From NCBI GenBank assembly GCA_964016885.1, contig OZ024759.1:27714001-27778000 (forward strand): DNA of 64,000 bases, written 5' to 3'. Position 1 is the stretch's first letter; each line of letters starts with the position of its first letter. Source of the DNA: Eledone cirrhosa (lineage: Eukaryota). Under the pieces are notes generated by a model. The model ran no database searches. It was not told where the DNA came from and saw only the letters and a program-made list of their open reading frames with translations. Of the stretch, positions 2,018-59,200 are shown one piece after another. The position numbers and the translations under genes are program-made.

Positions 2018-2062
<45 letters not shown>

Positions 2063-2103
2063 TTCAAAATATTAACAAAAATAGACATTCGTGTGATCAA
2101 GTA

Positions 2104-2170
2104 TATTTAATTATACATATTTCAGAGTTACTAAGCTATTTTCAACAGTACGTCCTCATCAGATAAAATA
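2104..2170 (-). ncRNA. Type I hammerhead ribozyme, same family as 12372-12437
   Basis: UAUUUUAU CUGAUGA GGACGUACU...AGUAACUCU GAAA UAUGUAUA^AUUAAAUA. Confidence 0.62.
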
Positions 2171-2361
2171 AGTTGATGCATGACATACCCTGACTTAGTA
2201 GATGGTTAAGATTCAGTCATGGTAGTCCACCATAACTGAATTTTATTTTTGTTAATATTTTGAATTAATATTAATAACTCCGGAAAACCATACTGGTTGA
2301 GTGCTCCCAATCTATTGTAAAACTCATTCTTTGATTTATTCATTGACCCTTGTTTAACCTT

Positions 2362-53245: not shown

Positions 53246-56084
53246 TACCCATGTGGAGTTTGCACTAGAAGTGTGTGTGTGTTTTAACCTGTACTTTTCA
53301 AATACTCCATTTTCTCCCAACTCTGCTTATCAGATGTTATTTTCTTAATCTTTACTCAGGTAAGACAACAGTTGGCCACCCTTTGTCCCTTATGGTATTT
53401 TACCTGATTTTCTAAAGCTATTATTTTATATTTGTTGTTACAGTAATTTTCTTTGGGATTCTCATGTTTCATTCATATATATATATATGTCTCAAATAAA
53501 GCAACGGAGTAAAGGACTCCCATATAACTTTATATATGCATATAAAACTGAGGAATTGGGTTCCAGTGTCGTTTTTCATTCACCATAGGTCCATGTATTT
53601 TAACCCTTTAGTGTTTAAACCGGCCGTATCCGGCCAGAATTCTCTCGCTCCTTTCTGTTCAAACTGGTTATAACCAGCTGCTCATACTGATGTTAAAGTA
53701 TTGTTCTCAACATCGATAATATCAAAATCTCAGATTCAATATTATGGGAGATAAAGCCTTTACCATTAAAATACAATAGTAAATATAGAGTAATGGAAAT
53801 GATTAAGGTTTAATCTCTTTCTCTACTCTATATCAATCAACACTACACTACATACTCTTTTGAAAGGCTGGAGGTCTGTATGGCAGATTTCAGCAATCAA
53901 TTCAGATCTATTGATAGATAGGGTGTGTGTGAGGGGATGTATACCAGTTTACATCAAGCATCAGTCAACAGTGTGTGATCTATTGATAGACAGGGGAGCT
54001 GTGTACCAGGTTATATCAAACATGAGTCAACAATATGTGATCTATTGATAGGATAGGGGCGGGCTGTATACCAGGTTATATCAAGCATCAGTCAATACTA
54101 AAGGTTCTATTCATAACAGGGAGGGGGAGCCATGTGGCAGCTAAATTGGTTGTTATTGAGGTTAGATATAGGGCAAGGTATCTTATCAGTCACTGACTCC
54201 TCTTTACTCTATATATGGGTTGTGAATGTGTATAGTGTATGTATAAATGTTGGTTGTGTGTGTGTATATGTGTGCGTGTATATGTATGTAGATGCTGGTT
54301 GTGTGTGTATATTTGCTGTATACACTATTTCAGTATAAATGTGTAAATGTATAGATGCTGATCTATACATTATTTCAGTACTAATGTATATATAACTCTT
54401 ATTACAGTACAAATGTGTGATAGTTTGTCAGACCATCTTCCTAAATGAAGGAATTTGTTTAGGACAAACATTGAAAAAAAATATAAAACTAAAACCTTTA
54501 TATATCTTTTTGAAGTTGTTAAACCTTGTACATTTCTTCACGTAAATAAAGATGAATCACTTTCTAACAAACTTGATTATTCCAGTCACTTTTGTATATT
54601 GCATAACTTTCACCATTTAGTTGTGTCAAGAACAACCTCCCTAGTGATGGTGATCTACATGACAAGAGCACCCAGTACATGCTGTAAAGTGGACATCCAG
54701 CCATAGAAAGCTTGCTAAACAAAGGGTTGGGAGGACTCTTCAGTCATCTTAAGGACATGACAACCTTCCTAGTACTTGAGAACTATATGATAAAAGCACC
54801 CAGTACACACTGAATTACTTGATGTTGGGAAGGGCATCCAACTGATTGGTGGTTTGTTGTCCAAAAATAGATTGTTAAATATACATAAATAGAAAACTAT
54901 AGATTAACAGAAAGAGAGAGAGAAAGGTAAATATGTTTTTATTGTCCAAACTAATCTACAATCTATATTTCTATTTCTTCTTTCATTCTATTGTCTGATT
55001 AAGGACAAACATCTGAAATGGTAAGACTTTTTTTCTACTACAAGCTAATATATATTTTCCCTTAATATCTTTCTATTTCATCTTTTATTTTTGAAACATA
55101 AACTCTCTTTTCTTTTATATATCAAACGTTAAACTAATATATTTCTTCATTGTACTGTGTTATTTCCATTAACCTTTTGCATATATATATATATATATAT
55201 TAAAAATTTCGCTCTACATGGCTGAATACAATAAATGTAATCTGAGTTTTTCGAATATTAATAATTGTTTCTACTTTTGGCACAAAGTCAGCAATTACCC
55301 AGTGCATTACTGGTACATTATTTTATCGACCCCGTAAGGATGAAAGGCAAAGTTAACATTGGCGGAATATGAACTCAGACCATAAAGAGCTGTAACTCTT
55401 TGCTGTAAAGCATGGCGTCCAACCCTCTACCGATATTGCCAATCCACCGCCCTTTTCGAATATTAATAATAACATTCGATTCATTTGCAATTTTGCAAAC
55501 AAGTCTCAATTTTATAACCATGTCAGGAGAATGAACACTTCATTCTTGCTCTTATGTTGGCAGTTCTGTTTGCATGCCAACATAAGAGCAAGAATGAAGT
55601 GTTCATTCTCCTGACATGGTTATAAAATTGAGACTTGTTTGCAAAATTGCAAACGAATCGAATGTTATTATTAATATTTGAAAAACTCAGATTACATTTA
55701 TTATATATATATATATACACACACATATACCATATGTACTTGAATATAAGCTGAGGAATACGTGACCAAAAAATCAATGGTAGAAAGGGGTGGTGGTGGC
55801 TTATATTTAAGATCAAATATTTTGACAATTTCAAATTCTATGTAAATTAGGTGTGGATTTTTGCCCATTTAGTGGGGTCGGTTTATATTCATATATATAC
55901 AGGTAAATTCCGTTATAACAAATTTTTCAGTACAATGAAATATTTTTCAATCCCTGGCCACACACTTGATGTGTTAGATCGAGCTTGTTATAAAGAATTT
56001 TTTGTTACAAATTTTTTTTTAAACCCTGTGAATTTTGTAAACGGAATTTCACTGTATTCCATAACCTTTTATTGTGAAAATAAT

Positions 56085-56246
56085 TTACAGATCATTTTCG
56101 CTAAAAACATAACACAGTTTCTTGATAGCATCCTCAATGTCTTCTTCACTGAGATTACAATGAGTTACAAGTCGAATATTTTGACCCATATTTCCACAAC
56201 CCACATGGATCTCCTTCCCCAGCTCAGCCACTTCAGCATCTGTGGT
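56085..56246 (-). CDS. THA1: Threonine aldolase terminal exon (TTDAEV...IRLVTHCNLSEEDIEDAIKKL...stop)
   Basis: 162 nt, acceptor caacag, stop TAA; AATAAA on the - strand at 56073-56068. Confidence 0.9.
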   Translation of the reverse strand, partial: TTDAEVAELGKEIHVGCGNMGQNIRLVTHCNLSEEDIEDAIKKLCYVFSENDL

Positions 56247-59200
56247 CTGTTGAAGAGAGAAAAAAAAACAAACAAAAATATATCTTGAAAAAGCTTTTAA
56301 AAAATTCAATTGTAAATCAAAAAAAGGAACATTTACAAATAGCACATATTTTTTCTTCTCATTTTCTCCATTCCTTCCTCTCATTACTCTTTATTTTCTA
56401 TTTGTAACTCTATTTCTGATGAAGGACTAGTGTCCGAAACATTAAGAGTCTCTTCCTGTTATTTTAAGCGTTTTATTTCTAACTCATATATTTCTTCAAT
56501 GTACTGTGTTATTTTTGTTATCTGTTTACCTTTTACACACACAGACATTATATATATATATATCATTATCATCATCATCATTTTACGTCCGCTTTTCCCT
56601 GCTTGAAAGGGTGGGACGGGTCCTAATCAGCACAGCATCTCTCCACTTGTTACGGTCCTTCGTTATCTCTGTGAGTTTCAGCGATCTGAGGTCTGCTCTC
56701 ATCACCTCCGCCCATGTTTTTCATGGTCTTCCTTCTACTGGGATTTCTTGGCACTTCTTTACCCAGCGGTCATCCTCCATGCGCATCACATGTCCATACC
56801 ATCTCAGTCTTCTCTCCTGCACACCACAACTTGTATATATATATATATATTTAAGTTTGGTGGTTCACCACTGGGTAGAACAGGTTATTCCGCACTCCTA
56901 ACCCTGATGTAATAGTAGGAAAGCAACTCATCCATATTTGATGTTGAATCCTGTTGGTGGTGTGGGAATAGAGTTAAATAAAATAGAGTAAAATGACAAG
57001 AGGCCAGACAGATTAAATTCCTTCAAATTTTTTATTTCAGGAATAAAAATTTGAAGGAATCTAACCTGTCTGGCCTCTTGTCATTTTACACTATAATATA
57101 TATATATTGTTTCCGAAGAAGACGGTCTGATCGAACCTATATATGAGGTCTGATAGTATACAGTTATATAACTGCTATAGATCAGTCAATATATCAATAT
57201 GATCAGCCCTCCAAAACGATAGTAAAACAATGATATGAATAGGTAAAATAACGACTTTGTTGTTTTCATTGTTAATATATATACATACCGAGATCTTTGA
57301 TGCTACGCAGTAACACAGAAGACTCGCCTTGCCTATGTACATAGCGAAACCTACAGTCAGTAGGCACCTCTTAACCAAATAAACACCCCCATCCCACTAC
57401 CCCTACTCTACGCCCCACTCCCACCAACACCACCCTCTCTCTGTAAAGTTATGTTGGTACCACAACATCCAGTCCAAAATAAATGAGGTCGTGTAGGTGT
57501 CACTACAAAAAAACACACAGTCCACGCTGTAATGTTGCCATGTAGGTAACACGGTAAAAACCTCCCAGTCCACACTGTAAACGTGATTGGTGTTAGGAAC
57601 GGCATCCTGCCGTAGAAAACCTGCCAGACAGTCCTATACGAGTGAGACACGGTGACCCGACCAATCTTACCTCAAATTGGGACAACTCCCGTCTAACCCA
57701 TGCTAGCGTGGAAGATAGACGTTAAACGATGATGATGATGATATATATACACAGGGTGGCCTAAAAGTTGCAATACATAAAAACAATAATTGTTTTATGA
57801 GAAACAATTTATTCAAAATAAATGAATATGGAAACTTAAAAATTTCTTATGTATTGCAACTTTTGGGTCACCCTGTATATATATATATATATATATATAA
57901 AATAGCATAGTTGTGTTCAACACTTGTTCTTTGCTACCATTGGTTTCCAATCACACATAAGGTTTAGTTTGTGTTTACACTTTCTCATGTGAGACCTTCA
58001 TTCAGGCAACTATAAAAACAAAGCTTATACTATAATATCCAGATCTCTATTCTGTTCCTTGGAATCACTTAACACAGCCTAACAGGTTGAACTTGGTGCT
58101 TTTTTGTTGTGGCACCAGTAATACCACTTTACAGGTTGAACTAGGTGCTTTTTTGTTGTGGCACCAGTAATACCACTTTACAGGTTGAACTGGGTGCTTT
58201 CTTGTAGTGGCCTCAGGACGGCCATCTAACTGGGTGGACTGGCTGCATTTTTTGTTGTGGCACCAATATTGCCACCTTATAGGATGGACTGGGTGTATTT
58301 TTTGTTGTGGCACCAATATTACCACTTTACAGGGTGGACTGGGTGTATTTTTTGTTGTGGCACCAATATTACCACTTTACAGGGTCGACTAGGTGCTTTT
58401 TTGTAGTGGCACCAATATTACCACTTTACAGGGTCGACTAGGTGCTTTTTTGTAGTGGCACCAGACCTTCATTCAGGCAACTATAAAAACAAAGCTTATA
58501 CTATAATATCCAGATCTCTATTCTGTTCCTTGGAATCACTTAACACAGCCTAACGGGGTGGACTGGGTGCTTTTTTGTTGTGGTACCAGTATTACCATCT
58601 TACAGGGTGGACTGGGTACTCTTTTTGTCTTTTACAAACATCCATATTTAATCTGGTGGTATTGTTCTGTGGAGAGAGAAATGGTCAAATAAATCAAAGG
58701 ATGATCTTCATACCGTGCTTAAGCGCTTGGCAAACTTAGAAACGAAGGCAATTTCTTTTCTGATCTTAAGAAAAACTATGTTGGTTTGAACTTGGTCAGG
58801 GTCTATAGTCACAACTGAAGAGGAAAAATGTTTCAGACCTGAAAAACAACAAAATAAAAAACAGCTCAGAAAACAAAGAAAATGGTATTTTATTAGAAAG
58901 CTATCATGATGCAAATGGGACATTAATTGTTAAAAATATAATGATAACAAAAGGTGTTGGGATAGTACCTTGTTGTTTAACCCTTTAGCATTTAAACCAG
59001 CTATATCTGGCCAGAATTCTCAAATCCTGCTGAGGTTAACTTTGCCTTTCATCCATTTGAGATTGATGAAAACAAAAGTACCAGTCAAATCCTGGAGTCG
59101 ATTCTTGCTCTATATCTCTTTCTCACTTTCTCCCACTCTCTATCCTTCTATAAAAGAAATCTGCTGTATTCAGACATGGAGTGGAGATGGGCTTTGTCAG

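Follow-up and report, generated by a model that had tools for sequence, protein, structure and literature searches.

Long inverted repeats in a 64,000-nt window of Eledone cirrhosa are mostly, it is likely, dead stumps of Penelope-like elements with ends near a repeated hairpin

The stretch of Eledone cirrhosa DNA analysed here, called the window throughout (64,000 nt; GCA_964016885.1, OZ024759.1, positions 27,714,001-27,778,000, forward strand), contains a series of palindromes beside (TA)n and raises the question of what made them: mobile units built around hammerhead ribozymes, or failed insertions of larger elements. We find that the palindromes themselves are ordinary by-products and that most of the inverted repeats are likely short dead stumps of Penelope-like elements (PLEs). 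One arm usually stops just ahead of a small hairpin and, judging from sequence, this hairpin is likely a signal that fixes where the copying enzyme begins; the ribozyme pieces are probably passengers.

The first-pass annotation had listed 13 long inverted repeats, and all 13 exist where it placed them or a few bases away. Arm identity ranges from 37/41 to 108/110 in local arm alignments, and the arms of 2058-2268 agree at 28/28 in a separate comparison; the ends of #1 and #12 were read outside the local alignment, in which the aligner mis-paired both. Binned local inverted self-matches number 24 in the window versus 0 in every one of 15 shuffles. The repeats had also been described as nearly all abutting (TA)n, and indeed 12/13 have (TA)3+ no more than 10 nt from an end, the exception being 12124-12214; random placement (n = 2000) gives 2.8 of 13 on average and never more than 8. 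A one-sided extension is likewise present in 12/13, here with 47555-48020 as the exception. These repeats (numbered) and the associated features are as follows.

1955-2020 (+): solo hairpin plus about 40 nt, flanked by two (TA)n runs
2056-2365: stub #1, head-to-head PLE; whole hammerhead 2106-2168 (-) in the short-ended arm, which stops about 5 nt ahead of the hairpin; hairpin 2277-2304 (+) in the tailed arm
2396-2636: stub #2; hammerhead stem II is the start of both arms; left-hand tail with hairpin 2452-2478 (-)
8989-9196: stub #3, same family as #4; centre is the hammerhead core; hairpin 9045-9066 (-); short arm stops 23 nt ahead of it, inside a (CT)n run
10808-10920 (-): solo stub with the 3' half of a degenerate hammerhead; hairpin 10838-10859, its start lying 51 nt from (TA)n
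11969-11993 (-): hairpin related to that of repeat 16240-16680
12041-12222: stub #4; hairpin 12090-12110 (-); short arm stops about 9 nt ahead; centre unlike that of #3
12326-12660: stub #5; intact type I hammerhead 12374-12435 (-), related to that of #1; second arm begins about 2 nt past the hammerhead cut site; hairpin 12575-12595 (+)
14720-15500 (-): decayed Hydra-clade PLE ORF fragment (RT end, thumb, CxCX5C linker, GIY-YIG start)
15630-15692 (+): 5' half of the #6/#7-family hammerhead, head to head with the preceding fragment
16240-16680 (-): multi-copy repeat without recognisable hammerhead; hairpin 16323-16350
16720-16908: stub #6; palindrome without loop, centred in the long stem II; lacks 12 nt that in family reads carry the hairpin's 5' strand
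16989-17186: stub #7, family of #6 with another centre; hairpin 17115-17140 (+); short arm stops 5 nt ahead
19790-20470 (+): second PLE, probably of a different clade, represented by its 3' end; GIY-YIG fragment plus hammerhead 20304-20339
27660-27857 (-): one single copy from the #12 family, without tail; its type I hammerhead is whole (27811-27857)
33633-33864: stub #8; nearly whole hammerhead 33703-33755 (+), identical core change in both arms; hairpin 33781-33828 (+) with long loop; short arm stops 2 nt ahead
35364-35541: stub #9; hairpin 35469-35495 (+), with the short arm stopping within 8 nt of it; no clear hammerhead
36932-37058: palindrome #10; extended on one side, with neither hairpin nor clear hammerhead; family member also at 14640-14695
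47555-48020: #11; spacer between long terminal inverted repeats, each end beside (TA)n; neither tail nor hammerhead
55200-55702: stub #12, probably of another PLE clade; arms begin at the cut site of the hammerhead that is whole at 27811-27857; about 30-nt tail without clear hairpin; left arm interrupted by a dispersed repeat, 55259-55453
56988-57088: palindrome #13; one-sided extension towards 56850; hammerhead and hairpin not found

Hammerhead sequence, said to be present whole or as a half in more than half of the repeats, occurs in 8/13: whole or nearly whole in three (2058, 12339, and 33633) and as a 3' half, judged partly by eye, in five (2488, 9090, 12124, 16724, and 16998), in keeping with the Hydra-clade PLE pattern of a sense-oriented type I hammerhead near the 3' end. 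Enrichment over shuffles had been suggested as a check, and a descriptor search found four whole hammerheads in the window versus none in 100 shuffles. Stub 55231-55702 keeps just the 3' strand of stem I, no recognisable hammerhead was found in 35364, 36932, 47555, or 56988, none of the 13 palindromes holds two whole copies, and Rfam gave no hammerhead match among the best 150 of 168 matches for the window. The idea of a single population built around hammerheads is not confirmed: 36932 and 56988 have neither hammerhead nor hairpin, and 47555-48020 looks like a MITE. The latter has terminal inverted repeats at both ends, a spacer and no tail, with no second copy within the window, and is likely a DNA-transposon MITE outside the PLE set; 36932 and 56988 were assigned to neither group, and 55231-55702 probably belongs to another PLE clade.

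What the families share is a hairpin in the tail, and the description "ribozyme-defined" is not supported on this point, since the hairpin is also found in the repeat at 16240-16680, where no hammerhead is recognisable. Nine of the 13 inverted repeats carry this bulged hairpin (RCTC-stem-loop-TH-GAGY-RC), partly deleted in one copy. It lies 25-55 nt past the hammerhead cut in the window stubs versus 38-56 nt in relatives, and the stubs probably contain hammerhead pieces because the ribozyme sits 25-56 nt upstream of this first hairpin. Strict hairpins number 10 in the window against a shuffle mean of 0.75; several of the window hairpins fold no better than shuffles.

The same motif is present in 53 of 77 Hydra-clade PLE loci (65 clusters), with a strong strand bias (97 sense versus 4 antisense; 0-2 hairpins in each of 20 shuffles). 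It occurs at 38-56 and 103-134 nt past the hammerhead cut, forms 30 tandem pairs in 24 clusters with a spacing of 55-83 nt, and in its second position lies 8-41 nt before the start codon, so that in these elements the hammerhead is followed by hairpin 1, then by hairpin 2 and then by the start codon. On account of this position between hammerhead and PLE start codon we dropped a Helitron-type end hairpin as a candidate; a tail encoding the ORF start, as in the Poseidon element PAc, was rejected since in relatives the start codon comes after hairpin 2. The two hairpin halves are 6 to 18 nt apart. When no stem was required (n = 78), the first inner pair was C-G in 56, T-A in 20, T-G in 1, and unpaired in 1, i.e., 76 Watson-Crick pairs versus 47 expected; covariation is confined to this pair, and the four outer base pairs hardly vary. 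Our covariance model, built from 19 hairpins with 8-nt interiors, is narrow because MAFFT left the 5' strand unaligned where loops were unequal, and it recovers 1/8 palindrome hairpins at E up to 1. Two of the six published Hydra consensi, the octopus consensus among them, show variants of the hairpin only. Rfam, run on 10 of the 77 loci, returned no match at E up to 1 for any of these 10, and nothing relevant among the best 150 of 168 matches for the window, and we did not find the hairpin in the literature.

Ends of copies fall close to these hairpins. Among 13 same-family 3' ends in relatives, picked by eye out of 33 rows, 10 lie 0-4 nt ahead of a hairpin (hairpin 1 in four cases, hairpin 2 in six) and the remaining three at -27, -62, and -83. 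In the window, the short arm ends within 10 nt of hairpin 1 in 7/9 stubs, the exceptions being #3 (23 nt) and #6, which ends early. The long ends lie 68-89 nt from hairpin 1, a little farther than the 55-83 nt that separate paired hairpins in relatives, and are tied to hairpin 2 by length alone, hairpin 2 being in no window copy. A coding relative, L005, consists of (TA)n, an inverted copy ending 4 nt ahead of hairpin 2, and a sense copy that begins at stem I and continues through both hairpins into the ORF. Relatives also have sense copies downstream of ORFs that terminate, tail-less, ahead of hairpin 1 (L026, L032, L036, and L046). At the other end, few 5' boundaries in relatives are informative: in the four copies that have real flanks, they lie at -8, -10, -11, and -165 from the core.

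Both PLE ORF fragments reported earlier for the window are present. The one at 14720-15500 is multi-copy in the genome; its translation includes the CxCX5C linker, and it aligns to homologues into the start of a GIY-YIG endonuclease in C-terminal position. The RWK, DKT, CxxC, and CxH motifs (the last two replacing CCHH) are seen in a consensus of 42 homologues, in parts absent from the fragment. Pfam gave no match within the fragment, a profile search of PDB sequences none, and viral contigs no relative. For the second fragment, a word-index search found no homologue and Atlas gave a GIY-YIG look-alike only; from its hammerhead, this PLE (19790-20470) continues for about 130 nt to (TA)n without a hairpin. 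No window stub family is joined to an intact ORF. The #6/#7 family's upstream part and the first fragment lie head to head, both pieces broken; in other genomic copies 15630-15692 continues into 16779 onward (joint 15685-16779). The stubs likely belong to the Hydra clade, an assignment based on the shared hairpin and its spacing, and insertion in (TA)n is seen for 12/13 repeats.

Our main reading, to which we give a probability of about two in three, is that most palindromes are dead head-to-head Hydra-clade PLE insertions whose outer ends are two copy-start sites, each just upstream of one hairpin. The RT-endonuclease, probably a dimer, would bind both hairpins and nick both (TA)n strands, priming one cDNA per strand. 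The cDNA begun ahead of hairpin 1 would become the tail-less arm and that begun ahead of hairpin 2 the tailed arm, with a tail about as long as the hairpin spacing. Both would halt after 40-180 nt, mostly at or within the hammerhead, where the RNA may start, be cut, or fold strongly, and, after joining head to head via short complementarity, would be filled in. In published descriptions, PLE insertions in (TA)n have this anatomy, with copies meeting head to head and a tail on one side (PMC8557442, PMC3846280), and to that extent the earlier suggestion of abortive PLE integrations into TA microsatellites stands. Its second half, simple fold-back priming, is insufficient alone because the short arm stops at the site where thousands of family reads end in (TA)n: for the #6/#7 family, 3916, 3561, and 3628 reads in three other samples do so at 16842.

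A fold-back model, with a single cDNA started ahead of hairpin 2 that folds at the hammerhead and copies itself until stalled or trimmed at hairpin 1, the hairpin being a stop or trimming mark for the second arm instead of a start signal, seems unlikely to us. Centres do sit in self-complementary hammerhead parts, #12 retains its native loop, the ends of which match over 3-4 nt, both arms have subfamily changes in common in #6, #7, and #8, and Arkhipova et al. read junction palindromes as self-priming (PMC3846280). However, the ends at hairpin 1 that close sense copies downstream of ORFs involve no fold-back, and in vitro a Poseidon element has an RT start at each of its two tail boundaries (PMC11167929). 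Moreover, the centres of #6, #8, and #9, loopless or with a 2-nt loop, are hard to form within one strand, and two cDNAs fit better than one folding back because the centre of #6 is loopless.

Somewhat less probable still is that the motif acts as DNA, recognised in a new copy or intermediate by the GIY-YIG endonuclease, which would cut a few bases upstream so that the ends are cut sites. The near-invariant sequence of the outer stem and flanking bases agrees with this, as do the tail requirement for recognition by the Drosophila virilis endonuclease (cited in PMC11167929) and the attribution of the tail to endonuclease resolution by Craig et al. (PMC8557442). Inner-pair covariation and a half spacing of 6-18 nt nevertheless misfit double-stranded DNA, an argument that leaves a hairpin in single-stranded cDNA unaffected.

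The first option of the earlier annotation, ORF-less ribozyme-defined hairpin elements mobile as units, we consider very improbable. Read coverage of the #6/#7 family is far above that of the ORF fragment, and some of its opposite-strand joints occur at the same places in three other samples, but recurring joints can be the same inherited loci. The family's joints are scattered over eight places across 16779-16793, and no palindrome has two whole ribozymes. Identical whole palindromes were the proposed sign of unit movement; within the window, the centres are unlike in 3/3 pairs of family mates. Target-site duplications are hidden by (TA)n, and no empty-site allele is among the joints listed. 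Assembly or amplification fold-back artefacts can practically be dismissed: although no read or contig among those listed spans the exact palindrome loci, the arms show several differences, one arm carries an inserted repeat, the one-sided tails have defined end sites, and opposite-strand family joints recur in reads of the three other samples.

The main reading, with two starts on two strands, has a close counterpart in Poseidon PAc of Anolis (Frangieh et al. 2024, PMC11167929), whose protein, a predicted dimer, nicks and extends both strands from two internal start sites bounding the tail and, in vitro, works without the hammerhead being cleaved. The PAc starts fall within the ORF, 111-118 nt in, at an AC-rich stem loop, whereas the Hydra ends lie in the 5' UTR, just ahead of a sequence-conserved hairpin present twice; the cited parts of the PAc study report no cross-family signal. 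Tentatively, and by analogy with the telomerase template boundary, Hydra-clade PLEs may use a clade-wide RNA signal of two sites in the 5' UTR, on which a protein dimer docks and by which two internal template starts are set. Both target strands would be primed, short run-off cDNAs would leave stubs, and full copies would arise only if the enzyme jumped to the 3' end of an RNA in tandem or circular form; we regard this wider model as possible rather than probable. If it is true, insertion into (TA)n would be open to any RNA with both hairpins, whether or not it has a hammerhead.

In L1 twin priming, cDNA is primed by both target strands, giving 5' inversions, and the internal site at which the second primer anneals varies, leaving parts that overlap little. 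Here, in contrast, the starts are fixed on both sides and the arms duplicate the same stretch. With the C-terminal EN+ PLEs of the Hydra clade (Craig et al. 2021, PMC8557442) the window sequences share (TA)n targeting, a canonical type I hammerhead, the CxCX5C linker, an inverted 5'-truncated copy at the 5' end and a tail at one end. The stubs differ in lacking any coding sequence and in tail length (30-40 bp there, about 70-100 nt including hairpin 1 here), and the cited sections of that paper describe no tandem hairpin. Penelope of Adineta vaga (PMC3846280) likewise has head-to-head repeats, an optional 3' tail on one inverted pLTR, and junction palindromes, but the copies described there are attached to ORFs and have target-site duplications, whereas here both arms are stubs and duplications are invisible in (TA)n. 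Non-LTR retrozymes, as described in PMC7229834 and bioRxiv 10.64898/2026.07.22.740005, are also non-coding, with type I hammerheads derived from PLE pseudo-LTRs. They are head-to-tail tandems with a hammerhead per unit, in contrast to the single inverted pairs with mostly broken ribozymes seen here, and no tandem array in the window overlaps a hammerhead.

The choice of start point, the one-sided tail, and the inverted copy are named as open questions for PLEs (PMC8557442) and have been partly answered for one element (PMC11167929). A motif of 20-30 nt that is present twice and conserved across many families allows a direct test of start choice. The hairpin is also a simple marker for annotating non-coding Hydra-clade debris. 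Such debris is very abundant in the Eledone cirrhosa genome.

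All 13 inverted repeats reported by the first-pass annotation (here IR1 to IR13) are real. The window is animal DNA with abundant (TA)n and many dispersed repeats, of a make-up that may be octopus-like, and it has 24 local inverted self-matches where none of 15 shuffles has any. The claim that nearly all abut (TA)n also holds, 12 of the 13 having an end at most 10 nt from (TA)3 or longer (mean 2.8 over 2000 random placements), as does the claim that over half carry a hammerhead or its 3' half (8/13, three whole or nearly whole and five as the 3' half).

Inverted repeats (start positions) and host exons in the window; hammerheads were assigned by descriptors, covariance model and eye.
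IR1 (2058), IR5 (12339), IR8 (33633): hammerhead whole or nearly whole
IR2 (2488), IR3 (9090), IR4 (12124), IR6 (16724), IR7 (16998): hammerhead 3' half
IR12 (55231): stem I 3' strand only
IR9 (35364), IR10 (36932), IR11 (47555), IR13 (56988): no recognisable hammerhead
28275-51880, + strand: CTP synthase exons, span including IR8 to IR11
about 56000-60000, - strand: exons of a beta-eliminating lyase family gene, around IR13

The arms of the ribozyme-bearing cases run outward in the hammerhead sense and are therefore joined at their 5' ends. A one-sided extension, or tail, is found in 12 of the 13 repeats; IR11, without any, looks like a MITE. The centres are unlike between family mates in all three pairs (IR6/IR7, IR3/IR4 and IR1/IR5). 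This layout is known from Penelope-like elements (PLEs): one account describes an inverted 5'-truncated copy with a tail at one end and, for the Hydra clade, hammerheads of canonical form and targeting of (TA)n (PMC8557442), and another describes palindromes at the junctions of Adineta PLE insertions (PMC3846280). The palindromes are known in kind, and the finding as first posed, that of ribozyme-defined hairpin retroelements or abortive PLE integrations, is ordinary PLE debris; its observations were mostly right and its interpretation half right. None among the pieces listed spans the exact loci of the palindromes.

Just past the point where arm homology stops, unrelated families have a bulged hairpin in common: RCTC, then a short stem and loop, a bulge of two bases of which the first is T, GAGY and RC. 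The strict pattern has 10 sites in the window (shuffle mean 0.75, maximum 3), looser patterns gain the hairpins of IR3 and IR8, and the hairpin is present in 8 of the 13 listed repeats. The short, tail-less arm stops at most 10 nt from it in seven of nine cases (IR1, IR2, IR4, IR5, IR7, IR8 and IR9), with a few bases' doubt where TA matches run on; the exceptions are IR3, ending 23 nt before the hairpin, and IR6, whose short arm ends early. IR6 is without the hairpin 5' strand, which is kept in 2907, 3201 and 3927 family reads. Several window hairpins fold no better than shuffles, and a narrow hairpin model recovers just one of the eight in palindromes. The hairpin is absent from IR10, IR12 and IR13, which are possibly of other clades.

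In relatives the hairpin usually comes as a tandem pair, hairpin 1 and hairpin 2, between hammerhead and start codon. A scan of metagenome contigs, taking the best 80 of 515 confirmed relatives, gave 77 loci in 65 clusters. Among these, the hairpin occurs 97 times in the ORF sense and four times antisense (0-2 in 20 shuffles) and is carried by 53 of the 77 loci, many of the others being cut short. Measured downstream from the hammerhead cut, it is found at 38-56 nt and a second time at 103-134 nt, forming 30 tandem pairs in 24 clusters at a spacing of 55-83 nt, with the start codon 8-41 nt past hairpin 2. Tails in the window, from hairpin 1 to (TA)n, measure 68-89 nt, near this spacing, and none of the window copies has hairpin 2. 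Pairing is seen at sites anchored on sequence alone, 78 of 90 having the GCTC partner; the first inner pair of those 78 is C-G in 56, T-A in 20, T-G in one and unpaired in one, giving 76 Watson-Crick pairs against 47 expected, while slid controls paired in 10-37. When 88 distinct hits are aligned by fitting to the model, the inner pair has 10 two-sided changes and the four outer pairs barely vary.

Rfam gave no match in 10 tested loci. Among six published new Hydra consensi inspected by eye, three have the exact motif, one of these starting 2 nt before hairpin 1 and having both hairpins, two have variants alone and one stops before the motif. In Naiad and Chlamys consensi, five 8-mers gave 18 matches, one with a partner strand, though line breaks may hide others; in the PMC8557442 supplement, the Naiad_Mmer consensus has a single hairpin-like match in its 3' UTR, by chance or as a captured piece. 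Searches of the text of open-access papers did not turn up the hairpin pair. Within that scope the twin hairpin is new, and it adds a detail that can be tested to a mechanism only partly understood.

Element ends in relatives also mostly fall at the hairpins. Of 33 alignments stopping inside the hairpin-pair region, 20 were set aside because they matched between families, matched in TA alone or were a self-match, and 10 of the 13 same-family 3' ends kept lie 0-4 nt before a hairpin (four at hairpin 1, six at hairpin 2), with three elsewhere. At one locus (L005) the complete form is seen on a coding element. In this genome, the IR6/IR7 family runs into (TA)n at 16842, which in family coordinates is about 6 nt short of the hairpin; three other samples gave 3916, 3561 and 3628 reads with this end. 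Of the family's 15 listed joints, 14 change strand, 12 of these at eight positions within 16779-16793, which we read as further fold-back copies with varied centres. At 16835-16836 and matching sites the arms differ within IR6 and within IR7, a weak hint of two RNA templates at a hypervariable site where both letters are common among family reads. At another locus (L002:394-500), (TA)9 separates hairpin 1 from hairpin 2 and directly precedes the latter. The arrangement looks like insertion of one copy at the long-end site of another, which could be how partial tandems arise.

The inner ends concentrate on the hammerhead, lying in stem II for IR2, IR6 and IR7, at the core for IR3 and IR4, at stem I for IR8, and at the cut site for one arm of IR5 and for IR12. 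In relatives, three of four informative 5' boundaries lie 8-11 nt before the hammerhead core, a thin fit to centres that may mark the RNA start or the ribozyme cut. A similar distribution of inner ends would come from stalling on RNA folds or from unspecific short truncation.

PMC11167929 reports that the purified protein of PAc, a Poseidon PLE of Anolis, nicked and extended both strands, that two internal starts bound the tail, and that the protein is a predicted dimer for which ribozyme cleavage was not needed. Taken together with the observed ends, this biochemistry has as its simplest model that each target strand, and each hairpin, would give one cDNA, and that the two cDNAs, truncated early, would be joined head to head; for the Hydra clade we infer the whole of it. 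Snap-back of a single cDNA, by which one strand would supply both arms, is an unlikely source of these structures. A DNA-level endonuclease signal is more improbable still.

A strict descriptor finds one whole hammerhead in the window and a looser one four (0 in 100 shuffles), two of the four being in none of the listed repeats. Under a covariance model of 23 related hammerheads, the best-ranked sites are 27811-27857, 12374-12435 and 33703-33755; IR1 and IR3 score weakly. In the IR10 family (36940-36990 and 14650-14700), a hammerhead-like core with stem II faces inward, opposite to the other stubs, has no stem I partner and scores at chance level. Another degenerate core with stem II (56416-56455) is not within any inverted repeat.

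For the PLE ORF fragment at 14720-15500, 328 homologues were found, and these carry the Hydra motifs. A second, at 19790-20089, looks like the GIY-YIG of a different clade and is followed by a hammerhead downstream; no window family was tied to an intact ORF. If the host genes are transcribed, the palindromes within them would give long intronic RNA hairpins; the lyase gene is presumably threonine aldolase-like.

Other fold-backs and repeats accompany these. An unlisted multi-copy fold-back at 14200-14464 has an inverted arm of about 33 nt that stops within the element, where the sequence is TA-rich, and does not mark an element end; some 150 nt beyond, on the minus strand, is a degenerate sequence resembling a hammerhead 3' half. 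Another, at 41056-41207, occupies an end of a SINE-like repeat (mate 57427-57742) and ends in an A-run and (TA)n; neither hammerhead nor hairpin was found in it, and fold-backs are not confined to ribozyme-bearing families. A small element at 57741-57886, with terminal inverted repeats of about 40 nt and TA at both ends, resembles what we take to be a Tc1/mariner MITE. Inverted pairs of a dispersed family with many window copies lie at 32125-32531 and 42518-42753, a Mariner-like element at 5593-6477 whose inverted repeats are 105 nt long and whose transposase is deleted, and a DDE_1 transposase fragment with terminal repeats at 34134-35172.
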